Source: a phage
Direction: 5' to 3' (one strand)
Assembly: GCA_033648345.1 (NCBI GenBank)
Contig: GCA_033648345.1_4121.1
Length of the DNA: 64,000 nt
The first letter of the stretch is position 1. The number at the start of each line of letters is the position of its first letter. A program made the translations under genes and the position numbers. The notes below the pieces were generated by a model. That model did no database searches. It was given only the letters and a program-made list of their open reading frames with translations, and was not told the origin of the DNA. Shown piece by piece: positions 24,436-43,369 of the stretch.

Positions 24436-24811
24436 CATGACTACTATATATGACATTCTAGGTGACTTGAATAAAAATATAGATAATGATTTTGTTATTG
24501 TTGGAACTACACAAAATATAATTCATCTTCCATTGGGTACACCAGATAGGTTAATTTTTAATATATACGGAAAAACACTGACATACCTACACAATGGTAT
24601 GGTTATATTGGTACTTGATATTAAAGAAAATACAATACGATATGCATATGACTTCAACGTTTATTGGTCAAGAACCCATAGTATTGATATTGAGGAAGAT
24701 GAACTATTTCAATTGTCGTTAATCGAGAAAAATGTAATAGGAGTTACCGAAATTGGCATTGTTAAAAAAGCATTAGAATATGTAAATAGCAAATTAAATG
24801 GTGAGCTATGA
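24416..24811 (+). CDS. FQxS-module family protein
   Basis: C-terminal EDELFQLSLI. Confidence 0.5.
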   Translation: MLRVKINMTTIYDILGDLNKNIDNDFVIVGTTQNIIHLPLGTPDRLIFNIYGKTLTYLHNGMVILVLDIKENTIRYAYDFNVYWSRTHSIDIEEDELFQLSLIEKNVIGVTEIGIVKKALEYVNSKLNGEL

Positions 24812-25263
24812 TGAAAATTGATGAAATAAAAAATCATTTTGAAATTGCATTGTCTTGTAAATTTGATGGCTCTTATGTTCCTGATCCAGAAGAGATAATT
24901 AGAATTTCCACATCGTTTTCGGAAGAGTACAATGTTCTTATTGAGAAAACATATGACAGTACTGAACTCGCATTTTACAATAAGAATTCACGAACAACAA
25001 CATTTATATTATTATATAACACAACATCGGATATAATAGAAATTATAACATGTAAAACAAGCAAAGATATACATTATGAGACTATCTCAAATGTGAGTTA
25101 TTGCTCAACTGAAGAAGGATACTTTCAGGAATCTCTTGTTAAAAATTTAACAGTTAGTTATTCTGATTTAAGCACTATAATCAATTGTGTTGAAAAGCTA
25201 AATGATTTCGTTCTATCTATGTTTGATATCACAGAGCAAAACCCGAAGGTAATCAAATGCTAA
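24808..25263 (+). CDS. FQxS-module family protein
   Basis: C-terminal TEEGYFQESLV. Confidence 0.5.
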   Translation: MMKIDEIKNHFEIALSCKFDGSYVPDPEEIIRISTSFSEEYNVLIEKTYDSTELAFYNKNSRTTTFILLYNTTSDIIEIITCKTSKDIHYETISNVSYCSTEEGYFQESLVKNLTVSYSDLSTIINCVEKLNDFVLSMFDITEQNPKVIKC

Positions 25264-25712
25264 ATCCAGGACAGTTTTTTCATTTACTTGGTATTACACC
25301 TATACCGGATTTAATCAGTGAAACGAACCAATATCGTGATATAGGAATTGTATCTATGGAATACGATTCACCTGACTTTAAATGTTACGTTACATATGAT
25401 TTGGTAGCCTATGAGTCAGAAACTGAGATAAAAAAACCATCATACATTTTTGTGTTCATATATAATGATTATAGTGGTGATCTACTCAATGATGTTCATA
25501 TTGACACATTTGAAATATGTGATAATATTATATCAGATGATTCATCATGTACATTTGATTTATCAGAAAACAGTACTGAAGAGGCACTTTTTCAGTTGAG
25601 TACAGTTAGTAACACTGTACTAACTCTTGATGACATTGAGAAATTTAAAGAACAGCTTGACGCAGTACGTGAGATGTTCTATAATCATTATCCAGAAATC
25701 GAGTTCAATTAA
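25257..25712 (+). CDS. FQxS-module family protein
   Basis: C-terminal TEEALFQLSTV. Confidence 0.5.
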   Translation: MLNPGQFFHLLGITPIPDLISETNQYRDIGIVSMEYDSPDFKCYVTYDLVAYESETEIKKPSYIFVFIYNDYSGDLLNDVHIDTFEICDNIISDDSSCTFDLSENSTEEALFQLSTVSNTVLTLDDIEKFKEQLDAVREMFYNHYPEIEFN

Positions 25713-26065: not shown

Positions 26066-26317
26066 ATGAGTGAACATCGTGCAGTACTTAAAAAGATTTT
26101 AAATGAACTTGGTGATGAGTTTAATGTTACTGAAGAAGAATATCAATGTTGGAAGAAGGATTTCGAACTCCTTGCTGAGTATGATAAAGTCTTCAATATG
26201 ATTGGTGTCATTAGCCAGTACTTACTTGGTGGAGGACGTGCAAGTGCTTCAATTCTGGCATCTGCAATCATCTGTACATCACGATGGTGTGATGAAAAAA
26301 GTTTGGAAGATTTCTAA
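26066..26317 (+). CDS. hypothetical protein
   Basis: Start set at MSEHRAV after GGGGAA RBS; ORF-track start 26027 is less likely. Confidence 0.4.
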   Translation: MSEHRAVLKKILNELGDEFNVTEEEYQCWKKDFELLAEYDKVFNMIGVISQYLLGGGRASASILASAIICTSRWCDEKSLEDF

Positions 26318-26369
26318 ATAAGATGCTATAATATATCAGAGTACCTTAACAATATAAAAAGGATTTTAT

Positions 26370-28250
26370 ATGAAACCTATCCGAGTACTATCTCTTTTTA
26401 ATGGAATGAGTGTAGGATACATGGCATTAAAAGATGCTGGTATCCCTGTTGAAAAATATTATTCATCCGAAATTGACAAATTTGCTATAGCTGAATCCCA
26501 AGCTAACTTCCCCGATATAATCCAATTGGGTGATGTAACTAGATGGAGAGAATGGGATATTGAATGGGATAAGATAGATCTACTGATGGGTGGTTTTCCA
26601 TGCTTCCCAGCAGGAACTATGATAATGACAAATAAAGGTCATAAAGATATAAAAGATATAAAAATTGGTGATATGGTTCTTACACACACTGGACAGTACC
26701 AAAAAGTATTGAGTACTGGTGTTAAAAAGGCTCCCACTCGTATTATTACAGGTCAAGGTCACCTTCCAATTGAGTGTACCGATAATCATCCATTTTGGAG
26801 TAGGGAACGTCTAGCCAATAAATGGAATAATCAACGCCGAAGATATGATTCTGTGTTTTCTGAACCGCAATGGGTAAATGCTATAGATCTTACTAAACAA
26901 AGTTATATTTGTAATGTTAAAAATATTACACATAATACAGTAAGTGATAAAGATGAAAAATATTGGTATTTTGTTGGTCGTTTTATGGGTGATGGATGTG
27001 CTAGTGTATCTAATAACAAATACAGTATTACTATTGTAGATTCATTAGATAAAGTTGATGAATTGAAAAAATGTTTTGATGATTTTGGATACAAATACAC
27101 ATTAGCTATTAAAGATAATCATGTAAGATGTGATATATATAGCAAAAAGCTTTATGATGAATTAATATGTATTGGGCATAAATCACAAAACAAATGTTTA
27201 CCACCTGAAATATTCAATGAAACTATCAATAACAAAGAAGCATTTATTAAAGGATACATGGATGCAGATGGTTGTGAGGATAAACACAATAAAAAATACA
27301 AATTTACCACCACAAGTTATAAAATAGTTCTTGGTATGCAACAGTTAATCTTAGATACTTATCAACGTCATTGTACTATTAGTCAAACTGTTCCAAAAAC
27401 AAAAAAATATATAAAAAATAAGTTGGTTAATCAGCTTCCGTATTGGAATGTTCATTTTAGCTATAATAAAATTAAAAGAGATGATGTAATATATGATGAA
27501 ATTTATATATGGAATCGTGGTGTAAAAAGTAATGTACCAACCGGAGAATGGAAAACCGTTTACAATATTGAAGTTGCAGTAGATAACACATATACGGCGA
27601 ACAATATTGTAGTTCATAACTGCCAAGCGTGGTCAGTTGCAGGTAAACAGGGTGGAATAAATGATCCTCGTGGTATGTTATTCCATACAATGGTTGATAT
27701 TTACCAGCACATAAAAAGTCTCAATCCAGACTTGAAAGTACTGTTCGAGAATGTTAAAATGAAAGAAGATTTCAAGCAATACATTAATAGTGTTCTTGAG
27801 ATGACACCAGTACTGATAAATTCCCAGCATTATACGCCTCACTTCAGGCAGAGATATTACTGGTACAGTACTGATAAACTTTTTATACCACCTGCATTAT
27901 CAAATGCACCTAAACTTCAAGATATTATTGAAGATGGTTGGTACACTGACAGAACCGCTTCGTACTGTATAGATGCTAACTATTTTAAGGGTGGTGATTG
28001 TAACCAGTACTTTAATAAATCAAGAAGACAAATTGTTTTCAAAGAACCTGATATCGATAGGGATTTCCTTATTGAACATGGTAAGCGAAATGTGGACTAT
28101 CGTCATTTAACAGTACAAGAGTGTTGCATGTTGCAAGGAATTGATGTAAACTACTTCAAAGTTAGTAGTTCAACACAAGCATACAAAATGCTTGGGAATG
28201 GATGGACTATGCCAGTTATATCACACTTATTAAGAGAGATATTCTTTTGA
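26370..28250 (+). CDS. DNA (cytosine-5)-methyltransferase (Dcm-type) interrupted by an in-frame intein
   Basis: Motif I LSLFNGMSVG; extein junction reconstitutes motif IV GGFP-C-QAWSVAGK; motif VI LFENV; motif X MLGNGWTMPV. Confidence 0.85.
   Translation: MKPIRVLSLFNGMSVGYMALKDAGIPVEKYYSSEIDKFAIAESQANFPDIIQLGDVTRWREWDIEWDKIDLLMGGFPCFPAGTMIMTNKGHKDIKDIKIGDMVLTHTGQYQKVLSTGVKKAPTRIITGQGHLPIECTDNHPFWSRERLANKWNNQRRRYDSVFSEPQWVNAIDLTKQSYICNVKNITHNTVSDKDEKYWYFVGRFMGDGCASVSNNKYSITIVDSLDKVDELKKCFDDFGYKYTLAIKDNHVRCDIYSKKLYDELICIGHKSQNKCLPPEIFNETINNKEAFIKGYMDADGCEDKHNKKYKFTTTSYKIVLGMQQLILDTYQRHCTISQTVPKTKKYIKNKLVNQLPYWNVHFSYNKIKRDDVIYDEIYIWNRGVKSNVPTGEWKTVYNIEVAVDNTYTANNIVVHNCQAWSVAGKQGGINDPRGMLFHTMVDIYQHIKSLNPDLKVLFENVKMKEDFKQYINSVLEMTPVLINSQHYTPHFRQRYYWYSTDKLFIPPALSNAPKLQDIIEDGWYTDRTASYCIDANYFKGGDCNQYFNKSRRQIVFKEPDIDRDFLIEHGKRNVDYRHLTVQECCMLQGIDVNYFKVSSSTQAYKMLGNGWTMPVISHLLREIFF
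26601..27620 (+). mobile_element. intein (340 aa) with LAGLIDADG homing-endonuclease domain, inserted at the catalytic Cys of the methyltransferase
   Basis: Begins CFPAGT (block A), TDNH (block B), two LAGLIDADG-like blocks (YFVGRFMGDGCA; FIKGYMDADGCE), ends VVHN followed by +1 Cys. Confidence 0.8.
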
Positions 28251-28252
28251 AC

Positions 28253-28732
28253 ATGAAGAACTACCCCACCTATACTGAACGTGTAATGAAATTTCAACGT
28301 CAGTCATCAAAGGAAGAATTAGAATTTAATTTGTACTATCCTAATATTGGTGATGAGGTATTCTATTGTTCTCATACAAAGAATGGAACTTTACTTAAAT
28401 CTGGTAAAGGTATTATTGTTGATATGATTAGAACTTTCAAAGGTAAACTTAATGTAATGTACAAAGTACAAGATTCAAGTACTGAGTGCATTCATGAAGT
28501 GATGCATAATATACCTGCATATCCAAAGGATTTTGTTGAGCTAATATCTCGAAGGGAGAAACCTATGTTTTATTGTGGTTATGACAAACTAACCAAACAA
28601 ATTATTCCTAATACTATGGGAAAATTTAAAAGTGATGTTAAAACTGAACTTAATAAGAAATTAGGTTCATCATGGGAAACTGAAAACGAATTCATCGAAA
28701 TTCGTTTGATTGAAGTAACTATACTCGATTAA
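28253..28732 (+). CDS. hypothetical protein
   Basis: Start at ATG immediately after methyltransferase stop (MKNYPTYTE...). Confidence 0.45.
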   Translation: MKNYPTYTERVMKFQRQSSKEELEFNLYYPNIGDEVFYCSHTKNGTLLKSGKGIIVDMIRTFKGKLNVMYKVQDSSTECIHEVMHNIPAYPKDFVELISRREKPMFYCGYDKLTKQIIPNTMGKFKSDVKTELNKKLGSSWETENEFIEIRLIEVTILD

Positions 28733-28738
28733 TTACAG

Positions 28739-28762
28739 ATCCACGCTATGCGTGGATTTTTC
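28739..28762 (+). terminator. rho-independent terminator
   Basis: atccacgc-tat-gcgtggat hairpin then TTTTTC. Confidence 0.6.
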
Positions 28763-28776
28763 ATAGGTGCATATAT

Positions 28777-29289
28777 ATGACAGTTCCTTATGTTAAAATT
28801 ATTAATAATATCCTTGATTCGTGGGAAGATGTTATTACTGGTAAAAAGAACCCAATGCCAGTACACGCACTAACCGGAAGACTACAATTCAGAATGTCAA
28901 ACCAAACTGAAACTTTTAATAATCATGATGTTCACATTACTATAACACCTGTACGTATTGTAATTAAAAAAAATCAAGATGATGAATTGACATTATCTAT
29001 TGGTAGTGATAAAATCATTTTAAGTAATTTATCCGAAGAAGAATTCTTTCAACGAAGTACTATCATCGACATGAAAGATTTCACATATGAATCATTGGTT
29101 GAACTCAATACACGTTTCAACGATATTCAGGAACGATTGCGACCAATCCTCCGTAAAGAAGAGGAAGCCTGGAATGAAAGTGTGAGAAAAATGCAAGAAA
29201 TGTTGAAAGAAAATATTAACAATCTGGGTAAAGCTACAATGGAATTTGGTAAATCTTTTAAACTGAACTTTTCAAAGGATCGTAAATGA
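28777..29289 (+). CDS. FQxS-module family protein
   Basis: SEEEFFQRSTI. Confidence 0.5.
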   Translation: MTVPYVKIINNILDSWEDVITGKKNPMPVHALTGRLQFRMSNQTETFNNHDVHITITPVRIVIKKNQDDELTLSIGSDKIILSNLSEEEFFQRSTIIDMKDFTYESLVELNTRFNDIQERLRPILRKEEEAWNESVRKMQEMLKENINNLGKATMEFGKSFKLNFSKDRK

Positions 29290-29741
29290 AAATTGATAAT
29301 TTGATTCATGTCTTAGGGACTTTACATAAAATATTATTACATCTTAACGAGATGAATAAACTAGGTTATAATGTCCATAATGTATTTGAACCTACATTTA
29401 AATATAACTCAATCACTGGAGATGGTAATTACATAATCGAATATACATATGAAACTGATCCAGACTTCTATCCTCTTACGTTGCGAATTTATCCAACAAG
29501 TCCGATAGGCATTCACGATATATCATCAATTTCACTTGATCCAGATGGTGAAACGAGTATTGAATACAATAATGATTCAAAACCAGAATTTTACATTGAT
29601 GATATTAAAAAGTTGTTCAATGATGAATATGTTTTCCAACAAAGTACTGTGCATGATGTTGGTAGTACTAATGGGCAATTTTGGAATACATGTTATTATC
29701 ATATGATTGAAATTTGTAAATTACTAAAAGGTGTTGAATAA
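29286..29741 (+). CDS. FQxS-module family protein
   Basis: DEYVFQQSTV. Confidence 0.5.
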   Translation: MKIDNLIHVLGTLHKILLHLNEMNKLGYNVHNVFEPTFKYNSITGDGNYIIEYTYETDPDFYPLTLRIYPTSPIGIHDISSISLDPDGETSIEYNNDSKPEFYIDDIKKLFNDEYVFQQSTVHDVGSTNGQFWNTCYYHMIEICKLLKGVE

Positions 29742-30124
29742 TGAAATACTGCATTGAAGTACATTACACTACAGGTGATACTGAAAATTGTTATGACGTT
29801 CTTAATACAATTGATATTCAATGGTCTTCTAAAGAGGAAGCAGTTGCTGCTTTACAGTGCCTAAAAGAGCATTGGGTGTTTTATATGAAGCAAGATAATT
29901 GCTATACAAAAGAACACGAAACCATCGTCGAAAATGCTAAACAAAAAGAGTGGTTTGACCCAATATCACCAGCATATTCATTCTTGGTTAAAGTTGGTGA
30001 TGTGACAGTTCCATTACGAACACCGTGGAACGGCTACTTTGAAACTCTTCATAATGCACGAGTTGTCGCTGTTGATAACCCTGAACAAATCGATTTCGAT
30101 TCATTGGACTGGAAAAAACTATGA
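29741..30124 (+). CDS. hypothetical protein
   Basis: 127-aa ORF. Confidence 0.45.
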   Translation: MKYCIEVHYTTGDTENCYDVLNTIDIQWSSKEEAVAALQCLKEHWVFYMKQDNCYTKEHETIVENAKQKEWFDPISPAYSFLVKVGDVTVPLRTPWNGYFETLHNARVVAVDNPEQIDFDSLDWKKL

Positions 30125-30564
30125 CAGTACTGCACCGATTGAAGAAGGTTAAGCATCCAGTTGTATATGAGGACTGGAAACGACAGAAGTTGCTGGGTGA
30201 TTTTTATTACCCAAAATCTAAAGTTCTTGCGAATTCAAGATGTACATATTGCACACATAATGATAAAGATACAGTATTTGTTGAAATGGGTTTCCATCCA
30301 TCGAACACAATGTTCACTACTAACCAAACGTTTTACAAATTTCATATACAAAAAGATTCATTTACTGTTATGATTATAAAACATTTAGTTGAAGATCTGG
30401 CATTCAGTGAAGAACGAGTACCTTTATCATTAGTGGATATTCCTTATAATAATTTAGAGGAAATGTACTTCCAACAGTTGACAGTACAAGAAAACTTTGG
30501 TATGATAGGACTTCAAGAGTTAGAGATGATTAAGCAAATTCGTGATATCTACTTTAAGGAGTAA
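30121..30564 (+). CDS. FQxS-module family protein
   Basis: EEMYFQQLTV. Confidence 0.5.
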   Translation: MTVLHRLKKVKHPVVYEDWKRQKLLGDFYYPKSKVLANSRCTYCTHNDKDTVFVEMGFHPSNTMFTTNQTFYKFHIQKDSFTVMIIKHLVEDLAFSEERVPLSLVDIPYNNLEEMYFQQLTVQENFGMIGLQELEMIKQIRDIYFKE

Positions 30565-31097
30565 CTATGCCAGTACGTAACAGTACTTCACGCTTTACGC
30601 TTCAACAGAAAGCAGATCTTTTGAATATGGCAAACAAAGATTCTAATTTTCACTATCTAGTACTCGGTGGTTCAGTTGAAAAGATTGACCTACGTGAGTG
30701 TATGAAATAACAAAAAGGGGACTAAAATGAGTCTACGTGAATCATGGGAACAATTTAAAGAAGAGATTGGTTATCGTGGTGTCAAAATCGAACCAATCAA
30801 TCGCACCGAAAGCATCAAAGCTAGTACTAATGGCACTACCTATGATCGTTATGATGAAAAGTATGGTTTACATTCTAAACCAAAGGATACTGAGTAATGG
30901 TGTATACTAATATTTTTACTGGTATTATGCGTAAGTTTGTTAATGGTACTGGATATGTATCCAATGACAACGGTAGTACATGGGTTAAAAATAATACGTC
31001 CGAATCTTTAGTGAAAAGTCTTCCGTATTATAAAGCTTGACACATGAAAATGGAGTATGTATAATACTCCTATATTAATCAAATGAGGATATACGAA

Positions 31098-31670
31098 ATG
31101 GCTGGTGTTGATAAAATTTGTGAATTCAGTGGCGATTATGAAGGTTACGAGATGTACAAGTCCAAGCGTAATCACATTCAAGTACTGTCAAAGTACCGTA
31201 AAGAATTCCGAGGCCACAAAGCAACATTGTATGTTTTTGAGAATGGATATTCTGAAGTTTTCACAAGTGGTGGGTATAGTACAGCTAACATGGCACATAT
31301 CAACCCAAACCCAACTGAAGATGATTGGAATAGTGGTAACGCTTTTCGTATTTCAATTTTGAATAAAATGAATCGTTACGACCGTTATTGTACATTCTTT
31401 GAAAATATTTCAGAATACAAGCAAGCATTAAAGAAATATAATCAACGCTTACTAATGAATTATGATTACATTCTTCATGTTCCTACTGTTCCAGGTCAGG
31501 TTAATGGTCTGTATACGAACAGTACACATGATTTAACTGCGGTGAAGCGTCGCCTCAAACGTATGTTGGGTTGTGGTAATTTAACAATCAAGGTTATGCG
31601 TAATGAATCAATGTATAACTTTTTAAATGTACTACACTACACATTGAAGGATAATAATGGAAACGATTAA
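31098..31670 (+). CDS. hypothetical protein
   Basis: Start at ATG after GAGGA RBS and TGtATAAT -10 at about 31056. Confidence 0.45.
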   Translation: MAGVDKICEFSGDYEGYEMYKSKRNHIQVLSKYRKEFRGHKATLYVFENGYSEVFTSGGYSTANMAHINPNPTEDDWNSGNAFRISILNKMNRYDRYCTFFENISEYKQALKKYNQRLLMNYDYILHVPTVPGQVNGLYTNSTHDLTAVKRRLKRMLGCGNLTIKVMRNESMYNFLNVLHYTLKDNNGND

Positions 31671-31854
31671 GTTTATGTTTGAGGTGTTTGTTGCATTCAT
31701 CTTATGTGCTGTATCTATTGCTATTGCTTTAATCCCAGTAATCGTTTACCAAGTTAATGGTGGTACAGACCCAACAGTTGATCTGTTTCTTCGTTGCGTG
31801 GGATTCTGCATATGGTTGGCGATGTTTATGTACTATATGCATCGTGAGGATTGA
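31657..31854 (+). CDS. small hypothetical membrane protein
   Basis: 65 aa, two hydrophobic helices. Confidence 0.35.
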   Translation: METIKFMFEVFVAFILCAVSIAIALIPVIVYQVNGGTDPTVDLFLRCVGFCIWLAMFMYYMHRED

Positions 31855-32687
31855 TTATGTCATTGGAAAAAGTAATTATTTCTGAATTCCGAAAGTACAT
31901 CATTGATTGTGATAGAGATACCCAGCGTAAGTTCAATGAGTATCTTGACAAATATCCATATTTGATGTTTAATCCATTTGAAACTCAATCCGATGTTAAT
32001 CTTGGATTTTACATTGGGTTTACACAACGAATTCTACAACAATATGAGATGAAACAGCCAGAGGTTTGGGTAGAAACTGATTCGAATGAGACGAATGTTT
32101 TTTATCTGTACTCTTATTATGCGGAAATTGTTAGTTCAATGACGCTAGAAGGGTATCTATTCGTCAAAACATCTGATATTGAAAAAATATACATAGAACC
32201 TGTATCTTTGGATATGGTTGCCCAGCTTCCAACAGTTCAATATTTGGATGCAAATGAGTTGACATATTCGGTGTTTGAGTACCTTAACCGAGACGATTTA
32301 ACTCAAGAAATTGAGAATATGGTTTCAAAATATACCACAACTCTTATATCTAATGGTTCACTTAGAATAGAACTGATTTACGACGATACTAGTACTAATG
32401 CAGTACGAGGAACTCGAATTGGAAAAGTTACTATACGTGTTGTCCACAATGATGTAGTACTTGGTTATATTTCGAAACGTGGTCATGACTTGTGTTTGAT
32501 TAACACATATGTTATTGAACGAAAAGAATGGAACGATTTAATGCAAAAAATCGTAGACGGAAGTGGAATTCGTGATATAATGTGTAATGAGGTAGTGACA
32601 ATGAATCCTGACATTGACTGTGATGTATATTTCCCAGTTCCTGGATTTACTCTACGTAATTTTGGTACATTAAAGGGTACAAAATGA
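31851..32687 (+). CDS. hypothetical protein
   Basis: 278-aa ORF. Confidence 0.5.
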   Translation: MIMSLEKVIISEFRKYIIDCDRDTQRKFNEYLDKYPYLMFNPFETQSDVNLGFYIGFTQRILQQYEMKQPEVWVETDSNETNVFYLYSYYAEIVSSMTLEGYLFVKTSDIEKIYIEPVSLDMVAQLPTVQYLDANELTYSVFEYLNRDDLTQEIENMVSKYTTTLISNGSLRIELIYDDTSTNAVRGTRIGKVTIRVVHNDVVLGYISKRGHDLCLINTYVIERKEWNDLMQKIVDGSGIRDIMCNEVVTMNPDIDCDVYFPVPGFTLRNFGTLKGTK

Positions 32688-32974
32688 AAATTTTAGAAGT
32701 CTTACTTGAAAAGGATGCATCCGGCACTCTTTATGTTGGTAATGAGTTCAGTCCTGATCCAATTGATATGATGCAGCGTATTCAAACACTGACCCAATCA
32801 ATTTCAGTTAAACAACCTTTCCTAAAAGAATTGGAAATTCACTGCGATAAAGATATGGAACAACATGATAATGTTATTTCTGATATCAAAAGTCTATTGA
32901 CAAAGAATGGATATGTGGAGTATAATCCTTCTATCGTAATCGTTATCCCTGACTTTATGAAAGGAACATTGTAA
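32684..32974 (+). CDS. hypothetical protein
   Basis: 96-aa ORF. Confidence 0.45.
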   Translation: MKILEVLLEKDASGTLYVGNEFSPDPIDMMQRIQTLTQSISVKQPFLKELEIHCDKDMEQHDNVISDIKSLLTKNGYVEYNPSIVIVIPDFMKGTL

Positions 32975-33243
32975 TGACTAAAGAAGAAATGAAATCTCGC
33001 CTAAGCGAACTTAAGAAAGAACGAAAACTAGTCCGTTTGGACTGGGACATTCTTAACAAAAAAGATGAGCAATCATATGCTAACTGGAGTTCCGATAAAG
33101 TTCGCAATGACCGTTCCAAAGAAGACGCTAAACAGTTTATGGCATTGACCAAACGTTTATCTTCACTGAATAGTGAAATTACAGGTCTTCAAAAGGAAAT
33201 TATTTCAATTCTTCAAGTGGAGATCAACTCACTGTATGAATAA
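32974..33243 (+). CDS. hypothetical protein
   Basis: 89 aa, predicted coiled coil. Confidence 0.45.
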   Translation: MTKEEMKSRLSELKKERKLVRLDWDILNKKDEQSYANWSSDKVRNDRSKEDAKQFMALTKRLSSLNSEITGLQKEIISILQVEINSLYE

Positions 33244-33532
33244 ACATGAAGTGATTCATTTTGATGGTAAGATTTATGTACCAAACAATGATAGTACTGA
33301 ATCTTATTATCTAATCAATGCAATTATGTCAGAAACACAAACATGTTGCCGTCAGCGTCCAGGTGAGTATGAGTTCAGTCAGACCATTGGTTATTATCGT
33401 TATACTGAACTTGATAAATTTACAATCGATTCTAAAAAAGTTATTGACGTTCTCACGAAGAACGGATATAATGAATCCGAATCAAACGAAACAGAGTTAC
33501 CAGTTGTGAAATTTGTTCTAAAAAATAATTAA
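33236..33532 (+). CDS. hypothetical protein
   Basis: Start at MNKHEV overlapping upstream stop. Confidence 0.4.
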   Translation: MNKHEVIHFDGKIYVPNNDSTESYYLINAIMSETQTCCRQRPGEYEFSQTIGYYRYTELDKFTIDSKKVIDVLTKNGYNESESNETELPVVKFVLKNN

Positions 33533-33649
33533 TTTTTGGGACAACACTGAAAAGCATGATATAATGTATATTATCGGCAGATGTAAAAATGCAAACCATT
33601 CCTCAATGATGAGGGTTTTTCATAAAAAAGAAATAAAAGGGTATTAAAA

Positions 33650-33859
33650 ATGGCTAAAGAAACTAACGCACAAGTACTAGATATCACCGACTTCGACCGC
33701 ACTGTGAACTACATTCAGTTCCAGATTCATCAAGCTGAAGAAGCTCTCGCAGTATTCCACGGTACTGGTGCAAGGCCAATCCGTTTTGCTCATCTAATTG
33801 CATGGAAGAAAAGTCTACAAGAAGAACTTTCTGAACTGCGTAAAGCAAACCGTAAGTAA
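33650..33859 (+). CDS. hypothetical protein
   Basis: 69-aa ORF. Confidence 0.4.
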   Translation: MAKETNAQVLDITDFDRTVNYIQFQIHQAEEALAVFHGTGARPIRFAHLIAWKKSLQEELSELRKANRK

Positions 33860-33865
33860 TTGATT

Positions 33866-33894
33866 TCCTGCCTCATCAATGTTGATGGGGCTTT
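33866..33894 (+). terminator. rho-independent terminator
   Basis: gcctcatcaa-tgt-tgatggggc hairpin then TTTTT. Confidence 0.55.
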
Positions 33895-33923
33895 TTAATA
33901 AAATACAAACTGAGGATATATTA

Positions 33924-34430
33924 ATGAGTGTTGAATATTGGTTTTTGTTTATATGTCTTGGTACACTAGTACTGATTACATTGGGCTTAATCTTCAATAC
34001 GGTAATCAGTGGTAGTAATTACTTCAAGTCATTTCAACTTCTAATGTCAGCAATGCAGTACAGTGACGAGGCAGAAGAAACCACTACGTTGATTTTGAAT
34101 AAACTTGAAGCTAACTTACTGGTTGCTAAAATTTCTTCGTGTAATACAAATATTGTATTTTATGCATCACCCGTGGACATTAATGGGTACGAAATGAGTT
34201 ACCAGCCAGCCGTTGCTGAAATTTTTATTGGTTCTAAGTATTATGCATATGGATATATCCGAAAGTATTATACTGAAGCAAAAGCCGAGCTAACAAAGAA
34301 ACGACCGTCAATTAAGACATTAAAGCGTATCATCGCACTAGAAAAGAAACTACGAGGTGATGTGACAAAAAATGATTCACCCACTGTAGTAAATACAAAG
34401 AAAAAAAATAACGTAGTGGAGTTGGATTAA
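33924..34430 (+). CDS. hypothetical membrane protein
   Basis: Start at ATG after GAGGA RBS; N-terminal TM helix. Confidence 0.45.
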   Translation: MSVEYWFLFICLGTLVLITLGLIFNTVISGSNYFKSFQLLMSAMQYSDEAEETTTLILNKLEANLLVAKISSCNTNIVFYASPVDINGYEMSYQPAVAEIFIGSKYYAYGYIRKYYTEAKAELTKKRPSIKTLKRIIALEKKLRGDVTKNDSPTVVNTKKKNNVVELD

Positions 34431-34735
34431 TGGACGCAGATAAATCAAACAGTATTCTTATTGATGTACAAACGAAGTTATTAGATGTTATGGAAATCAT
34501 CAAAGATTTACCACAAGGATATCAGTTTAAAGTTCGTGAAATGTTATCTTGTGCAGAAACGGTTGTGTCTATGTACAATGATGTGCAGCATGGAATTATC
34601 CCTGAAATTCTTCAAGATGGTCTAAATATTAACACAAAGATTCCAGCACAAGAGCCTGAAGAGGTTGTTCAGCCTGAACCAGAACCTCCTTTACGTAAAG
34701 TACTGGATCTATCTGGTATCAAAATTAACATCTAA
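34430..34735 (+). CDS. hypothetical protein
   Basis: 101-aa ORF. Confidence 0.4.
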   Translation: MDADKSNSILIDVQTKLLDVMEIIKDLPQGYQFKVREMLSCAETVVSMYNDVQHGIIPEILQDGLNINTKIPAQEPEEVVQPEPEPPLRKVLDLSGIKINI

Positions 34736-34915
34736 AATACATTCAATAGGAGAAGTAATGAGTAATCAAAAAATTGACTTAGTAGTAAAACTTCAAGAGA
34801 TTCAAGCACTAGCTAAAGGACTTGATGAAAAACGTGCAGCAGTTGATTCACTGTGTGCAACAATTCTGACTGTTTTTGCAGATTACGAAAAGAAATCTGA
34901 TTAAACATTACTTTA

Positions 34916-34944
34916 TACCCAGTCTAGTACTGGGTATTTTTTTT
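34916..34944 (+). terminator. rho-independent terminator
   Basis: tacccagt-ctagt-actgggta hairpin then T8. Confidence 0.65.
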
Positions 34945-34955
34945 AAGGAAATAAA

Positions 34956-35348
34956 ATGACTGAATCTGAACTACGTGAAATGATAGATTTCATTTATGAA
35001 ATGGTGCAAGATAAAAATAACATTAATACAATTACTACTGGACCAAGACAAATTGGTAATCAAATGACATATTCGTTGTCCTTATGGTTACACCCGAACT
35101 TCAAGGTTGATTGTTTGCATTTTCGTCCTGATATTGATGCTTATTATTTTGTAAATCATGATGCATTAATGAAACCAAATAAGCGTCCAGTTGATGATGC
35201 CTTTGTGACGCACCCATTTTATCTGGCTGATTCCGAAGAAGATGAGTTTCAAAAGAACACAACGTTAAGCCCAGGTGAAATTTGCATCCCTTACACACTA
35301 AAAGATAAAATGATTTACATCACAGAAGTTATGAAAACATGCTGGTAA
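34956..35348 (+). CDS. hypothetical protein
   Basis: 130-aa ORF. Confidence 0.45.
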   Translation: MTESELREMIDFIYEMVQDKNNINTITTGPRQIGNQMTYSLSLWLHPNFKVDCLHFRPDIDAYYFVNHDALMKPNKRPVDDAFVTHPFYLADSEEDEFQKNTTLSPGEICIPYTLKDKMIYITEVMKTCW

Positions 35349-35396
35349 GTGCAATGAAACTCTGATATAATACAAACAATGATAATAGGAGGATAT

Positions 35397-35615
35397 ATGA
35401 AATTTATTAATTTTGATATTTCTAAGGCCAAAGAATTATTTGTAAGAAATGCAGTTTATGATATCATGTTACATAACGGTACTGTACAAGAAGATGTTGT
35501 ATTGTTTTCGTTTGATGGTGAAAATCTCGAAACTATATATAAATTCAGCAACTTAGATGGTGACTTTTGGGAAACCAGTGCTGTTAAAATGTATAGAATT
35601 AAAAAGGAGCATTAA
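35397..35615 (+). CDS. hypothetical protein
   Basis: Start at ATG after AGGAGG RBS. Confidence 0.4.
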   Translation: MKFINFDISKAKELFVRNAVYDIMLHNGTVQEDVVLFSFDGENLETIYKFSNLDGDFWETSAVKMYRIKKEH

Positions 35616-35616
35616 T

Positions 35617-36105
35617 ATGCCAATTCGTGGTGTACCAGAACCATTAATGGAAGTTATTAAGCATGTTCGCATTGGAGATCGAGAAGTTAATCTTCGCCGT
35701 AATAACATTTTTTACTTTAAAACTTCAGAAATGAGTTCTGTACAGATTGTCATTGGTACATCTATTAAGATTACTCGTGTACTTGATGGTAGTACTGACT
35801 TCGTTGAATATAATGTACTTACTAATAAAGTAACGCATATATATAAATGGAGTGGGTATAAAACTATTAAGTATGAATTTGACTTAGCTAGAACTGAAGA
35901 AGAACGATTTATGCTGAGTACTATCAATCCAGCAAACTATCCTGACCTTGATGCATTTTTGCTAATTTTAAAATTGTATAATGAAGCAAATCAGAAAGCC
36001 AAAGATTATGATAGAATCATGTATGAACGCCGAAAAGAACGTGCACAAAAAAGTTATGATCTGTATGATAGCCCATACGTGAAATATAGTAAGGGGTCGA
36101 AATGA
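35617..36105 (+). CDS. FQxS-module family protein (variant)
   Basis: TEEERFMLSTI; start at ATG after AAGGAG RBS. Confidence 0.45.
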   Translation: MPIRGVPEPLMEVIKHVRIGDREVNLRRNNIFYFKTSEMSSVQIVIGTSIKITRVLDGSTDFVEYNVLTNKVTHIYKWSGYKTIKYEFDLARTEEERFMLSTINPANYPDLDAFLLILKLYNEANQKAKDYDRIMYERRKERAQKSYDLYDSPYVKYSKGSK

Positions 36106-36506
36106 ATAAAGAAGTTCAAATTATCATAACTCCACCTATACAAAGTCTGGATGTATCCATTAGTGATTTTTTGGAAAAATACTATGAATGGTTTAATGAA
36201 GATTCAGTAATTTATAACCATTCATTACCTGATGGTTTCGTTGAGCTTATTGAATTAAATGCAAAATCACTATACTTCTGTGTTGAATACAATGATTATA
36301 TGACAGATGAAGTATATCGTTTTCGTTGTACATTGTATCCTAACCATTTTTCCATTGGTTATAAAGACTATCAGTACTGCACCACAAACTATAGTGTAGA
36401 GGAAGAATTTCAGTACAATTTACTTTATCCAGATTTAGATTATACGATTGCAGTGCTGTTGACTAAAATCATGGATTTTTATAAAGATAAATATAATGCA
36501 GCCTAA
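36102..36506 (+). CDS. FQxS-module family protein (divergent)
   Basis: EEEFQYNLL. Confidence 0.4.
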   Translation: MNKEVQIIITPPIQSLDVSISDFLEKYYEWFNEDSVIYNHSLPDGFVELIELNAKSLYFCVEYNDYMTDEVYRFRCTLYPNHFSIGYKDYQYCTTNYSVEEEFQYNLLYPDLDYTIAVLLTKIMDFYKDKYNAA

Positions 36507-36681
36507 GACATTTGATGAGTGGTTTAATCTACACTATAATATAAATGCAGCAGATATATACTATTTTAAGCTTGAATTGTATATATCATTGCGTAACCCA
36601 ATTGAGTACTATAACAACATTATCAATTGTGATGATTTTGGTACATATTTTAGTATAGCAGTCATGGACAAAATAAGATGA
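36496..36681 (+). CDS. hypothetical protein
   Basis: 61-aa ORF. Confidence 0.3.
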   Translation: MQPKTFDEWFNLHYNINAADIYYFKLELYISLRNPIEYYNNIINCDDFGTYFSIAVMDKIR

Positions 36682-36860
36682 CACACAAAGAATGGTTAGA
36701 TGAACTAAAATTTAAACATAATCCTTTTGGTTTTGGTATACGCCAAGGTCATTATGATGTGTTAAAAGATAAACAACTTTTCAAATCATTGGTACTTAAT
36801 GAGGATAGTAATCACTGGTACATCTATGAGCTTGCAATTAGAGACAAAAAAATTGACTAG
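36678..36860 (+). CDS. MTHEEW-family small protein
   Basis: MTHKEWLDEL...GHYDVLKDK...IYELAIRD; paralog of 37406..37576. Confidence 0.45.
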   Translation: MTHKEWLDELKFKHNPFGFGIRQGHYDVLKDKQLFKSLVLNEDSNHWYIYELAIRDKKID

Positions 36861-36905
36861 TACTGATATATATGCTATTCTTTTGTTTTAAGCAGGAGAA
36901 CAATA

Positions 36906-37409
36906 ATGCTCATTACGCATGTACCGGAAAGTATTACTGAGATTTTAAGTAAAATTAATGTTAATGAATTTGAACGAACAGTTCGAAAACAAGGTACTTA
37001 TCACTATAAGCACAAAGATGGTGAACATCAAATAAGCTTAGATCAGAATTATCAAACTCTAACAATTAAAATGGTTACTCGCTGGAATTTTATTCGTAAA
37101 GATACTATTATCTGTGATTTTGGTAAAAGACTACTTAGAAAATGTTTCTCTGAAACAAATGGTATCTATCCAAACCCGAATAGAATTTTCACATATCAAT
37201 ACATCACAGATGAAGATGTACATTTTCAAGAGAGTTTGGTATGTGATAATAAGTACTTTCCCGCATTTTCAGATAATTTGAAGTTAAAAGAACTATATAA
37301 CTATTTCTTAAACGACAATATTCTGTGGGATGAAGAATTAAAACAACGACAGATAGAACGTGAAAAGAAAAAAGTCTGGACTGGTTCACATTGGATGCAA
37401 CGTAAATGA
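36906..37409 (+). CDS. FQxS-module family protein
   Basis: DEDVHFQESLV. Confidence 0.5.
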   Translation: MLITHVPESITEILSKINVNEFERTVRKQGTYHYKHKDGEHQISLDQNYQTLTIKMVTRWNFIRKDTIICDFGKRLLRKCFSETNGIYPNPNRIFTYQYITDEDVHFQESLVCDNKYFPAFSDNLKLKELYNYFLNDNILWDEELKQRQIEREKKKVWTGSHWMQRK

Positions 37410-37576
37410 CACATGAAGAATGGATGTCTATTATGAAAGAACGATATGATCTGTTTGGGAATGGATTTCGTGATGGTCATTACGATATTTTACGAGACAA
37501 ACATCAGTTCGATTTATATGTACTAGATGAGGATGGAAATCGATGGTTCATATATGAGCTTGCATTTAGGGATTAG
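37406..37576 (+). CDS. MTHEEW-family small protein
   Basis: ORF below the track's length cut-off, found by hand: MTHEEWMSIMKERYDLFGNGFRDGHYDILRDK...IYELAFRD. Confidence 0.4.
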   Translation: MTHEEWMSIMKERYDLFGNGFRDGHYDILRDKHQFDLYVLDEDGNRWFIYELAFRD

Positions 37577-37586
37577 AAGATATATT

Positions 37587-37935
<349 letters not shown>

Positions 37936-37948
37936 CGAGGAATCCAAA

Positions 37949-38146
37949 GTGACTAAAGCAGAACTTGTAGCATTATTGGAATCATATCCCGATGATGCAT
38001 GTATTGAAGTTGTTCATAATGCGAGACATTTTGACATTGAAGATGTAGTACGTTATAATGACAAAGGTGTACTCATCATGGAACTATGTATTGGTGAAAT
38101 GAAAACTGTACCCGAATCAGAAAAACGTAAAAATAGTAAACCGTAA
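37949..38146 (+). CDS. hypothetical protein
   Basis: 65-aa ORF. Confidence 0.4.
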   Translation: MTKAELVALLESYPDDACIEVVHNARHFDIEDVVRYNDKGVLIMELCIGEMKTVPESEKRKNSKP

Positions 38147-38156
38147 GGAAAATAAA

Positions 38157-38375
38157 ATGGAATCTACTCTATTAGAAGTTATTAACTCATTAAACGCTGG
38201 CGACAATGTTCAAGTACTCCTTCAGGGATATCGTGTAAAAGGTTCAGTAGTTTTAGTTAATGATACCACTGTTGTTGTAACTGAAACTAACCCGTTTGAC
38301 AGTAATGAACTTGCTAATATCCATATTGATATTAAAAGTATTATTGGTGTTGGTGTAACTAAACCACAAGAATAA
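38157..38375 (+). CDS. hypothetical protein
   Basis: 72-aa ORF. Confidence 0.4.
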   Translation: MESTLLEVINSLNAGDNVQVLLQGYRVKGSVVLVNDTTVVVTETNPFDSNELANIHIDIKSIIGVGVTKPQE

Positions 38376-38396
38376 CAATTGTTATTGGGGATTACT

Positions 38397-38669
38397 ATGC
38401 ATTTTGAAAAATTCAATACAAATCGTAACACACGCATTGACGTTCTTTATGAAACACAAGACTCAATAAGCATTCGTACACGTAGTGGTGATGTATATCA
38501 TGACTGTACTATTGGTTGGGAACAGGGAAGAACACGTAGTGCAGAATTCGATAACTATCGCTTCTACCAAGGGGACACCACAATCTGGCCTGAACACGTA
38601 GAAGATATTGCGATTGAAGATGAACATAAAGATGAATTTATAAAATTTAATCCCGAAACCGAATCATAA
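38397..38669 (+). CDS. hypothetical protein
   Basis: Start at ATG after GGGGA RBS. Confidence 0.4.
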   Translation: MHFEKFNTNRNTRIDVLYETQDSISIRTRSGDVYHDCTIGWEQGRTRSAEFDNYRFYQGDTTIWPEHVEDIAIEDEHKDEFIKFNPETES

Positions 38670-38725
38670 ATATTGGGACAGACCAAAAAGATGTGATATA
38701 ATTATTAACATGATAACAAAAATAC

Positions 38726-39130
38726 ATGGAACGTAAAATGTGGGGAAACGAATATAAATCAAAACAAGGAAATATTGGAGTTGCTCGTGCAATAGATTAC
38801 TATGTCACGAATGGTTATTCAGTGTCGATACCGATGAATGACACACAATCATATGACTTGGTTGTTGATGATAATATTAAATTGTATAGAGTATCCGTAA
38901 AAACAACATCATACAAAGCACCATCTGGAAATTATAATGTCCAACTAAAAAATAGTGGTGGTTCTAGTGGTAAGAGTGTTATACGAAACTTTGATAAAAC
39001 ATCGTGTGACATACTGTTTGTGTTGTGTGATAATAATGACATATATATCATCCCAATTGATGACATTGATGCACATTCAGCATTTACATTAACTGAAGAA
39101 CGTAAGAAATATATTAGAAAATTATATTAA
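38726..39130 (+). CDS. hypothetical protein, possible small PD-(D/E)xK-fold nuclease
   Basis: YDLVVDD ... LYRVSVKTT resembles the D...(E/S)xK core of Hjc/YraN-like nucleases; weak. Confidence 0.35.
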   Translation: MERKMWGNEYKSKQGNIGVARAIDYYVTNGYSVSIPMNDTQSYDLVVDDNIKLYRVSVKTTSYKAPSGNYNVQLKNSGGSSGKSVIRNFDKTSCDILFVLCDNNDIYIIPIDDIDAHSAFTLTEERKKYIRKLY

Positions 39131-39136
39131 AAATAT

Positions 39137-39222
<86 letters not shown>

Positions 39223-39239
39223 CAATTAAAGGTTAAACC

Positions 39240-39400
<161 letters not shown>

Positions 39401-39404
<4 letters not shown>

Positions 39405-39561
39405 CACATGAAGAATGGATGAATGACATTAATTTTAGATATTCGGGTATCGGTAAATGGCTAAAGTATCATTGGGAATTCATTTCAGAGCCACATCTGT
39501 ATGATAAACTTATCAACGATCCAGCATATGAAATGTACTTAATTGAACTACTGGTACGAAT

Positions 39562-39565
<4 letters not shown>
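39401..39565 (+). CDS. MTHEEW-family small protein (tandem copy 2)
   Basis: MTHEEWMNDINFRYSGIGKWLKYHWEFISEP...; ATGA overlap with copy 1. Confidence 0.4.
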
Positions 39566-39733
<168 letters not shown>

Positions 39734-39734
39734 G

Positions 39735-40188
<454 letters not shown>

Positions 40189-40216
40189 GTATCTTAACAA
40201 CAGAAGGTATATTGAA

Positions 40217-40456
40217 ATGGGTAAGTATTTTGTGAGTTATAGTTATAATGTATCACGAAAGATTCCACGTGGTGACGGAATGGGATGGTCTTATGATGCA
40301 TATACTTTAAATGAGTCATGTATCATCGAATTACAAGAAAAAGACCTTGACATTTTAAAAATCAAACAACATATTCTTGATGTTGAATTGGCACATCGTA
40401 CTGATACCTATCCAGATGTAAACAACATCAGCATCTTAGTACTAACCAAAGTATAA
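40217..40456 (+). CDS. hypothetical protein
   Basis: Start at MGKYFVS downstream of promoter copy B (ORF-track start 40187 falls inside the promoter). Confidence 0.4.
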   Translation: MGKYFVSYSYNVSRKIPRGDGMGWSYDAYTLNESCIIELQEKDLDILKIKQHILDVELAHRTDTYPDVNNISILVLTKV

Positions 40457-40534
40457 GATAAAAAGAACTTTACTAAATAATTCCACTGGAGATTAATATG
40501 TTTAAAGATGAACGTCCAGATTTGTAAAAAGTAC

Positions 40535-40563
40535 TTGAATAAATAATTCAGTACTGATATAAT
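40535..40563 (+). promoter_or_regulatory. early promoter driving candidate ncRNA
   Basis: TTGAAT, 17 nt, TATAAT; same ttcagtactg spacer motif. Confidence 0.5.
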
Positions 40564-40569
40564 GAATTC

Positions 40570-40910
40570 CACAATTAGACGTATATGGTGTAAGTTACGT
40601 CGATGTAATCCAGAACAAGATCTCTGGTACTCTAGGAAGTGGTGAATGTTAACCTAGACGGGTTTGATAATTGGACGATAGGCAATTATTACTTGACTAG
40701 CAGGTTTAAACTAGAGGTGACAGTCCTTCACCAAACTGGAAAACCGGATGGACTTTTATTTAAAAGGGTAAGGCGTGGAAATATGTTTACAGAAGTTGCT
40801 TTTAGTAGCCTGTACGCCCCACGTCAAGGTAGCCGAAAGGCAAGTTAAAACGGGTGGTTATAAAGCTGAATTAACAGCGGCGTTTAAAAGCGTCACCATC
40901 CATTTTTTTT
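40570..40910 (+). ncRNA. candidate structured noncoding RNA (about 340 nt), function unknown
   Basis: Promoter-proximal, ends at T8 run; several local hairpins (gacgta..tacgtc, ggtga..tcacc, gcc-GAAA-ggc); only ORF inside is an Arg-rich 69-codon frame. Confidence 0.3.
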
Positions 40911-40926
40911 AATTAAAGTTGGTGAT

Positions 40927-41455
<529 letters not shown>

Positions 41456-41456
41456 T

Positions 41457-41574
<118 letters not shown>

Positions 41575-41648
41575 CTTTTTAATTTAAAAGTTTTTTTACT
41601 GTAGTGTTTAGTATCGTATAATGTAATCAAAAGGATAAAATAAAACTC

Positions 41649-42173
<525 letters not shown>

Positions 42174-42207
42174 TAAAAAACAGTACTGATATAATACAAA
42201 CATATTC

Positions 42208-42283
42208 GGCCCTGTATACAATCCAGGAATGTACTCTGCTCATAACAGATGTAAGGTCGGGGCAGCACCGACCAGGGCCACCA
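42208..42283 (+). tRNA. tRNA-like element with CAT anticodon (Met/Ile-type) and non-canonical T-loop
   Basis: Perfect acceptor ggccctg/cagggcc + a + CCA, D-arm taca-atccaggaa-tgta, anticodon loop cTCATAa, T-stem gtcgg/ccgac but loop GGCAGCA. Confidence 0.35.
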
Positions 42284-42389
42284 ATTTTGGACACATTAAT
42301 CTTCGATGGTAATGCTGGTTAATATCTTACGGCTGTAAAATGCAATACATTACATATTGCTTCAGGTACAGAGATATAAAGATTAATTA

Positions 42390-42890
42390 ATGAGGTATCC
42401 TTATTTTGTCCAATCCTTAATAACTAGAAATGGTGGAAAAGAAATGAAAGGTGTTTCAATTTTTTACGATTACCATGAACAAGGTTTACCACATCAGATT
42501 GCTGGAATCTATTCTACGTCTGATAAAACCGAAGAAGAGATGCGTACTGAATTATTGTCGCTAATTGGTGAGAGAAGTTTCCATGAACGTGATCAACCAA
42601 TTTTCATTAACCACACACATTTGTATGCAAAAAGTTTGCTAGGTGAAGAACTTGATAAAAAGGTGGAATACACTTTGAAACAGTTCTTCCCAATCGCACT
42701 TGATGTAGTTGGTTTCAAATCATCGGATTTCAAGTTCATGTACTATGATGTTGAAGCATATGAGTTCACTTGGAACAATCGTTATCATAAACAATTACAC
42801 CAATATCGTTTAGAACTTCAACATGAAGCGGCTGAAGCATATAAAGCAAAACGAGCAGCACAGAAGCTTGAAGGTAACGTACAGAAATGA
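42390..42890 (+). CDS. hypothetical protein
   Basis: 166-aa ORF; true start may be the internal ATG at about 42444. Confidence 0.4.
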   Translation: MRYPYFVQSLITRNGGKEMKGVSIFYDYHEQGLPHQIAGIYSTSDKTEEEMRTELLSLIGERSFHERDQPIFINHTHLYAKSLLGEELDKKVEYTLKQFFPIALDVVGFKSSDFKFMYYDVEAYEFTWNNRYHKQLHQYRLELQHEAAEAYKAKRAAQKLEGNVQK

Positions 42891-43189
42891 TAGAATCTAT
42901 CTTATGTGTACTGTTGCCAATTTTAGTAGTTGCTTTGATATGTCTTTATTATGGTTACAGTACTGTGATTGATAAAAAGCAAGTTTACGTCATTACATTC
43001 AGTACTACGCATCTTGAGTTTGGTAATGTTCACACTGGTGTCACTTATATTGCATACCGTTGTAAGTACTTCCATAAGTTCAAATCTTATGATATGATCT
43101 ATTACTGTGATGAATGCAACGTGAATCGTTATATTGACATAAACGATGAATCGAAAAAATCGTTTTACATTTTTAAAGAATTAAAATAA
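42887..43189 (+). CDS. hypothetical membrane protein
   Basis: N-terminal TM helix, Cys-rich C-terminus. Confidence 0.4.
   Translation: MIESILCVLLPILVVALICLYYGYSTVIDKKQVYVITFSTTHLEFGNVHTGVTYIAYRCKYFHKFKSYDMIYYCDECNVNRYIDINDESKKSFYIFKELK

Positions 43190-43277: not shown

Positions 43278-43369
<92 letters not shown>

Follow-up and report, generated by a model that had tools for sequence, protein, structure and literature searches.

The 64,000-nt stretch of phage DNA analyzed here (the window; contig GCA_033648345.1_4121.1 of GenBank assembly GCA_033648345.1) belongs to an Asteriusvirus, a 121Q/PBECO4-like jumbo coliphage. Its DNMT3-like C5-cytosine DNA methyltransferase gene is, with a probability that we put at about 0.85, interrupted by a genuine class-1 intein that has a LAGLIDADG homing endonuclease nested within it, as judged from sequence and a structure model. 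The intein sits between Pro77 and the catalytic Cys of methyltransferase motif IV. A first-pass annotation, made from the letters alone, had placed it at positions 26601-27620, and these boundaries and the 340-aa insert sequence proved exact to the base.

One open frame on the plus strand (26370-28250), with an AAGGA ribosome-binding site about 8 nt 5' of it, covers the N-extein, the insert and the C-extein, and its product reads ...KIDLLMGGFP / CFPAGTMIMT...TANNIVVHN / CQAWSVAGKQGG... across the two junctions. Deletion of the insert gave a 286-aa methyltransferase with a contiguous GGFPCQ motif IV, as the first-pass annotation had predicted, and this extein-only protein passed the NCBIfam model TIGR00675 (dcm; cut-off 100.65 bits) with 114.5 bits, whereas the precursor failed it with 94.8. 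Pfam DNA_methylase (PF00145) matched the precursor in three stretches (E = 6e-29), and extein motifs I, IV, VI, VIII and X were intact and conserved. GC content was 36.1% in the exteins compared to 29.8% in the intein. In sequence searches of the PDB, the best matches of the extein-only protein were the catalytic domains of human and mouse DNMT3A, DNMT3B and DNMT3C (E ~2e-24), with M.HhaI and M.HaeIII behind them (E = 6e-17 to 6e-16). The motif IV Cys is the established catalytic residue of DNMT3A, DNMT3B and M.HhaI-type enzymes. GGFPC of the extein aligned with GGSPC of DNMT3A and DNMT3B, identifying the +1 Cys as the motif IV nucleophile; the first-pass annotation was therefore right to equate the two, but it had assigned to the intein a residue that belongs to the C-extein. 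Some homologues of the methyltransferase carry the JGI name 'DNMT3A'.

The insert matched Pfam LAGLIDADG_3 above the gathering cut-off, both alone (E = 6e-11) and within the precursor (E = 3e-10), and Hint_2 (E = 4e-8 to 8e-8, the lower value on the precursor; 33-34 bits against a cut-off of 28.4), with weaker precursor matches to Intein_splicing, Hom_end_hint and Hom_end. Pfam agreement of this strength lies far above chance. Its N-terminal 66 residues matched the sequence of the gp41-1 mini-intein (6qaz). All blocks named in the first-pass annotation (Cys1, TDNH, two LAGLIDADG motifs and a terminal HN) were found. The features of a class-1 intein were present, namely Cys1, TxxH, a His-Asn followed by a +1 Cys, a Hint fold and exact in-frame insertion, as were those of a two-motif LAGLIDADG enzyme, with both acidic catalytic residues (Asp131 and Asp223) and the block D Lys kept. 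Across a 71-sequence alignment, precursor residues C78, T137, H140, K275, D300, G301, H416, N417 and C418 were invariant and D208, the first LAGLIDADG Asp, nearly so; Cys78, the first residue of the intein, was kept in 71/71 of these sequences and in 120/120 of the best homologues from a larger protein collection described below.

An AlphaFold2 model of the precursor, built on the same 71-sequence alignment, had a mean predicted local distance difference test score (pLDDT) of 87.8. Values under 50 were confined to residues 75-79 and 419-436, which make up the halves of the catalytic loop next to the splice junctions. When searched against the PDB with Foldseek, the modelled insert retrieved the inteins PI-SceI, TliVMA, PI-PfuI and PhoVMA (E = 1e-12 to 2.5e-19), with a template modelling (TM) score of 0.70, normalized to the target, for TliVMA. 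Both extein halves together matched DNMT3A and DNMT3B at TM 0.77-0.78, in alignments that cross the insertion. The Pfam and fold matches bear out the first-pass call of an intein with a LAGLIDADG endonuclease. Together with exact intein-less alleles in related phages, they rule out an ordinary variable or target recognition region of a methyltransferase as the nature of the insert. Positions of the features are given in Table 1. No other intein was found in the window: six-frame open reading frames (ORFs) of at least 60 aa were searched with the intein by phmmer and with a pattern for blocks F and G, and the methyltransferase gene alone matched. Minus-strand ORFs of 65-91 aa within the intein were unsupported and were taken as chance ORFs in AT-rich DNA.

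Table 1. Features of the intein-split methyltransferase gene and its surroundings in the window
Feature	Position	Strand	Sequence or motif	Remarks
Recombinant island	26210..28229			Matches intein-bearing UE-S1/ph0011; outside matches intein-less fEgEco12/BF17
Precursor gene, putatively intein-split C5-cytosine DNA methyltransferase	26370..28250	+		626 aa, 73.0 kDa; stop codon within coordinates
N-extein	26370..26600	+		77 aa; Pro77 is the -1 residue
Motif I	26388-26429	+	LSLFNGMSVG	N-extein
Motif IV, first half	26580-26600	+	LLMGGFP	N-extein
Putative intein, class-1 type with nested LAGLIDADG homing endonuclease	26601..27620	+		1020 nt, 340 aa, 39.6 kDa, GC 29.8%
N-terminal splicing (Hint) region	26601..26798	+		Intein aa 1-66; Hint_2 match aa 1-57
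Block A			CFPAGTMIMTNKG	Cys1 (precursor Cys78), TGC 26601-26603
Block B			GHLPIECTDNHPFW	TDNH; Thr60/His63 of intein, Thr137/His140 of precursor
Homing endonuclease core	26799..27551	+		Intein aa 67-317; LAGLIDADG_3
Block C (LAGLIDADG-1)	26961-27002		YWYFVGRFMGDGCA	FVGRFMGDG; Asp131
Block D	27174-27215		GHKSQNKCLPPEIF	Lys198
Block E (LAGLIDADG-2)	27234-27275		KEAFIKGYMDADGC	IKGYMDADG; Asp223
C-terminal splicing region	27552..27620	+		Intein aa 318-340; blocks F and G
Block F			VYNIEVAVDNTYTANN	C-terminal splicing region
Block G			IVVHN	His339, Asn340, then Cys+1
C-extein	27621..28250	+	CQAWSVAGKQGG (first residues)	209 aa plus stop
+1 Cys codon	27621-27623	+	TGC	Motif IV catalytic cysteine, first C-extein residue
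Motif VI	27741-27761	+	ENV	C-extein
Motif VIII	27843-27863	+	FRQRYYW	C-extein
Motif X	28194-28229	+	GNGWTMPV	C-extein

The gene was 99.4% identical to that of Escherichia phage UE-S1 and 99.1% identical to that of ph0011, both Asteriusvirus. Of 37 phage records with the gene, five (UE-S1, ph0011, TH47, JNE01 and A4) carried an intein, always at the same codon, and most had an uninterrupted 861-bp allele. Intein-less alleles in related phages, to which the first-pass annotation had looked for comparison, are thus plentiful; those of 121Q, CRJP21, G17, fEgEco12 and BF17 were exactly 861 bp and read GGFP/CQAWS without a gap or extra residue, and the DNA at the insertion point of 121Q and fEgEco12 is ATGGGTGGTTTCCCA/TGCCAAGCCTGGTCAG. 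A protein 100% identical to the precursor, WP_170998953.1, comes from E. coli-labelled contigs about 347 kb long and is named only 'DNA cytosine methyltransferase'. Across GenBank and RefSeq the gene bore only that name or 'hypothetical protein', and the intein was unannotated. Megablast searches of complete E. coli genomes gave no match to the gene, indicating that it is phage-borne rather than chromosomal.

Stretches of 50 kb from fEgEco12, which lacks the intein, and from UE-S1, which has it, were set against the window. At about 1500-26000 and at 28500-35000, identity of the window was 98-100% to fEgEco12 and 70-94% to UE-S1, whereas at about 26200-28230 the relation flipped: here UE-S1 was the closer phage, at 99-100%, and fEgEco12 stood at 82-88%. 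Mapped site by site, the left crossover fell at 26209-26233 and the right crossover at 28172-28230. Within 26234-28171, the 918 non-intein bases held nine differences from UE-S1, seven from ph0011 and 155 from fEgEco12. This island comprises the 1020-bp intein, flanked by about 370-390 bp on the left and 550-610 bp on the right. The insertion site lies at its centre, and no other break in identity to fEgEco12 occurs in about 25 kb on the upstream side or 6 kb on the downstream side. It looks like the footprint of homing with co-conversion during double-strand-break repair. Phage TH47 has an fEgEco12-type backbone (flanks 96-100%) with a patch of its own, from about -430 to +170 around the site, and the other intein type, which points to a second, independent invasion. 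UE-S1 and ph0011 were nearly identical in the gene region and then 81-89% identical just downstream. On this population-genetic evidence the intein seems to have moved recently between phages. Further along, at about 35000-46500, mosaicism is strong whether the window is compared with fEgEco12 or with UE-S1, and there are indels and stretches that do not align (e.g., 37000-37500 and 42000-43000); this part holds a tRNA-Ser (41338-41427) and a tRNA-Thr (43777-43850), and the corresponding stretch of UE-S1 is annotated with seven tRNAs and an HNH endonuclease.

The Asteriusvirus inteins fell into two or three sequence types: the type shared by the window, UE-S1 and ph0011; that of TH47 and JNE01; and A4. 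Between types, intein residues 1-66 and 318-340 were 85-100% identical, whereas the endonuclease core (residues 67-317) of the window was only about 40% identical to those of TH47, A4 and JNE01. The A4 intein (ON286972.1) is a chimera, in which the outer ~120 nt and ~80 nt (alignment nt 1-120 and 961-1044) are window-type DNA at 95-100% identity and the interior is nearer the TH47 type (62-90%), indicating recombination inside inteins at the same site. The distribution suggests that two intein types compete for one site in one phage genus, and nearly identical splicing ends around cores of ~40% identity may reflect diversification of endonuclease specificity. Between the window and TH47 types, the Hint ends had a proportion of nonsynonymous differences (pN) of 0.02-0.07 and of synonymous differences (pS) of 0.6-1.0, with a ratio of nonsynonymous to synonymous substitution rates (dN/dS) of about 0.05 and saturated synonymous sites. 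For the N-terminal Hint region pN was 0.07 and pS 0.6, and the C-terminal splicing region had one nonsynonymous and 15 synonymous differences in 23 codons. Corresponding values for the endonuclease core were 0.40 (pN) and 0.64 (pS). By these measures the splicing domain is under strong purifying selection, as would be predicted were splicing needed to set the host methyltransferase free. The saturated synonymous sites rule out recent gene conversion as the source of the likeness of the Hint ends between the window and TH47/JNE01. That explanation does hold for A4, whose ends were 95-100% identical to the window type at the DNA level.

We propose that translation yields a single 73-kDa precursor, as the one open frame and its ribosome-binding site indicate. 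The intein would then fold and splice: Cys1 would attack the carbonyl of Pro77 (N-S acyl shift), trans-thioesterification would hand the N-extein to the +1 Cys, destined to become the catalytic thiol of the enzyme, and Asn340 would cyclize with the aid of His339, after which an S-N shift would form the Pro-Cys peptide bond. Two products are predicted, a methyltransferase of 33.4 kDa in which GGFPCQ of motif IV is intact and the released intein of 39.6 kDa. With its catalytic loop split the precursor is probably inactive, and methyltransferase activity would accordingly depend on splicing, as the first-pass annotation also supposed; the spliced enzyme presumably methylates phage DNA, as its family membership implies. 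The free intein, for its part, would cut intein-less alleles at the motif IV DNA during mixed infections, and repair from an intein-bearing copy would install the intein together with several hundred flanking bases, both steps being supported by natural recombinants that include the window itself.

Several observations weigh against an intein that both splices and homes, and each lends itself to one of the alternatives. The endonuclease may be dead in an intein that splices normally, with the patchy distribution and the 2-kb island arising through ordinary recombination among co-infecting jumbo phages, an explanation that we regard as unlikely though the strongest of the competitors. It accounts readily for a core whose nonsynonymous change is about 10 times faster than that of the Hint ends, at a relaxed dN/dS of about 0.4; for the other, intein-unrelated mosaic islands at about 35-46 kb of the window, since the process that made those could also have made the 2-kb island; and for the chimeric nature of the A4 intein. 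Yet the core dN/dS is still below 1, the catalytic residues Asp131, Asp223 and Lys198 are kept in 71 homologues, and the solitary position of the island within the fEgEco12-like sequence, centred on the site, is matched by the independent TH47 patch, which brought a different intein type to the same site and backbone.

Far less probable is that the insert does not splice at all, being either a degenerate Hint/LAGLIDADG remnant or a lineage-specific domain, so that the gene is a pseudogene or encodes an active full-length 626-aa protein. Most inteins that have been tested reportedly splice poorly or not at all next to a -1 Pro (PMC6486613), and the intein C-terminal model TIGR01443 scored under its cut-off. 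The canonical block F Asp and His are also absent: in a weak alignment, Asn322 and Asn329 stand at the positions of the gp41-1 Asp and His, and the block reads Asn/Asp-Asn in place of Asp/His. These block F residues are an accessory feature that not every intein keeps. The atypical residues (N399, D405 and N406 of the precursor) are kept across the 71-sequence alignment, and their conservation, with that of the -1 Pro, throughout the family points to adaptation or family traits rather than decay. Moreover, the essential splicing residues are all invariant, the Hint ends are strongly purified while their synonymous sites are saturated, the extein motifs have stayed intact, the insertion is codon-exact relative to intein-less alleles, and the catalytic loop is the sole disordered part of the precursor model. 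A third idea, compatible with a splicing and homing intein, is that splicing takes place only under certain conditions, such as a given redox or thiol state acting through Cys1 and Cys+1, and gives the phage a post-translational switch or timer of the methyltransferase. Both junctions have a Cys nucleophile, and that at +1 also serves the enzyme as catalytic thiol; at least 120 diverse methyltransferase clusters have this site occupied; and conditional splicing is documented for other inteins (e.g., PMC6195587 and PMC4513877). However, most Asteriusvirus genomes lack the intein, so that a host benefit is unnecessary and the distribution fits a selfish element, and the sequence bears no specific sign of regulation; we consider such a switch improbable.

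We searched the intein by tblastn against 50,697 phage records and found relatives in many phage methylases at 22-30% identity. In a collection of 5.8 billion proteins, the best 120 matches all combined PF00145 with intein domains, and in every alignment the N-junction was P-C and the C-junction H-N-C. The first-pass annotation had implied that such an insertion is rare, which does not hold, as inteins occupy this exact site in at least 120 protein clusters and several named phages. The C5-methyltransferase junctions read FGFP/CQDIS in Lactobacillus phage Nyseid, GGTP/CQS in Mannheimia phage 587AP2 and GSPP/CKGFS in Erwinia phage pEa_SNUABM_5, and GGTP/CQAFSIAG in Dmt of P1-like phages (OP279344, RCS47 and vB_EcoM-Ro157c2YLVW). 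Like the window intein, these same-site phage inteins and those of the at least 120 clusters have the arrangement P/C...HN/C(Q/K), a LAGLIDADG core and the block F signature, and they fall in the same size class (312-349 aa). They differ in that those of the named non-Asteriusvirus phages share only 22-30% identity with it and reside in methyltransferase subfamilies with GGSPC, GGTPC or GSPPC, and none was annotated as an intein in the records examined. In P1 isolate OP279344.1, for instance, dmt (61684-64725) holds an unannotated 341-aa intein at the motif IV site. The intein-bearing methyltransferase of Mannheimia phage vB_MhS_587AP2 (KP137435.1) is annotated as two coding sequences; its C-extein meets a stop 20 codons past HN/CQ in the intein frame, which may be a frameshift, a sequencing error or the mark of a decaying gene, and an HNH homing endonuclease gene lies just downstream. 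One homologue, at 55% identity, came from a metagenomic contig of 237 kb that is rich in small ORFs without a Pfam match.

Among characterized inteins, PI-SceI (Sce VMA1; 1ef0, 1vde and 1lwt), TliVMA (7qsu), PI-PfuI (1dq3) and PhoVMA (7qst) share with the window intein a Hint domain split by LAGLIDADG, Cys1, TxxH and HN followed by Cys, but only 13-17% identity; their hosts are V-ATPase and ribonucleotide reductase, and unlike them the window intein has a -1 Pro. LAGLIDADG inteins in phage orphan methylase genes are also known from actinobacteriophages (PMC5050341, PMC9957025, bioRxiv 10.1101/2025.01.02.630785). The characterized DNMT-1/2 inteins of that group differ from the window intein in residing in N6/N4 methylases (PF01555) at other insertion sites in phages of actinobacterial hosts, with an intein identity of about 24%, although a 2025 survey does list C-5 methylases (IPR001525) among actinophage intein hosts (bioRxiv 10.1101/2025.01.02.630785). 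Methylase inteins of mycobacteriophages, which reside in N6/N4 enzymes (PMC5050341), were ruled out as the same allele by that host and by their junction, HV/C...KN/CP. In RefSeq copies, intein-bearing methylases of mycobacteriophages, e.g., Pacc40 gp60 (NC_011287) and Squirty gp68 (NC_026588), go under 'anaerobic ribonucleoside reductase large subunit' or 'DNA helicase'. PHROG 26446, which bears that name, matches the intein itself (E = 1e-25), and the name seems to have spread through a shared intein.

The best match outside Asteriusvirus among the phage records was an intein in the thymidylate synthase of Aeromonas phages PS1 and PS2 (30.5% identity, E = 2e-23). In PS1 (MN032614.2, 180350-182608) it too lies directly before the catalytic cysteine of a Pro-Cys pair (SLTP/CHFSF). 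The PS1 extein is ThyA (PF00303, E = 1e-64), and alignment with ThyA of E. coli runs up to the Pro before the catalytic Cys, which we take to be Cys146. The substrate of this host enzyme, which is not homologous to the methyltransferase of the window, is dUMP and not DNA. Intein identity is only marginally above that of inteins from other hosts, and by sequence a special kinship between the two inteins is not established.

Pro77 was kept in 120/120 of the best homologues, and since most tested inteins fail with a -1 Pro, as noted above, the window intein might belong to a natural clade specialized for a Pro(-1)/Cys(+1) junction. We offer this tentatively, as a minority view on the sequences compared; the Aeromonas phage intein, similarly distant, also sits at a catalytic Pro/Cys dipeptide. 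The atypical block F (Asn...Asp-Asn), which the family conserves, may be one element of an adaptation to Pro, though a simple rule that ties this signature to a -1 Pro is ruled out by Pseudomonas phage Lana, which has a -1 Asp with the same Asn...Asp signature. If such a clade exists, the catalytic thiol of the enzyme would itself double as splicing nucleophile, and ready-made proline-tolerant splicing tools would be at hand; an intein family with a native -1 Pro would be of use to technology if its splicing were confirmed.

The window intein is an unannotated addition to an already widespread kind rather than a new kind, and the general picture is unchanged, as catalytic motifs of nucleic-acid enzymes are familiar targets of phage inteins. 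Our literature searches found no description of an intein in an Asteriusvirus or coliphage methyltransferase, and a 2024 paper knows of no reported intein in E. coli or coliphages (PMC11162368). The word 'intein' is absent from the UE-S1 genome paper, which gives UES1_76 as one of two DNA methyltransferases, and the main text of Novikova 2016 does not mention methylases. Asteriusvirus offers a natural series for intein homing in a culturable E. coli phage system, with empty sites, two competing types, a chimeric intein and two apparent invasions of one backbone with mapped co-conversion tracts. What the window intein adds is natural evidence for ongoing homing, conserved ends set against divergent cores, and an invariant -1 Pro as a test case of extein tolerance.

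Downstream of the methyltransferase gene, the longest ORF (28202-28732) overlaps its 3' end by 49 nt, with a possible alternative start at 28254 onward. The corresponding coding sequence is 531 nt long with the same 49-nt overlap in ph0011, fEgEco12 and G17, and is shorter and abuts the stop in 121Q and BF17. The methyltransferase gene is also flanked by three ORFs that are each exactly 151 aa long, in 24808-25712 and 29286-29741; the first two overlap slightly (24808-25263 and 25257-25712), and the three may form a small paralogous family.

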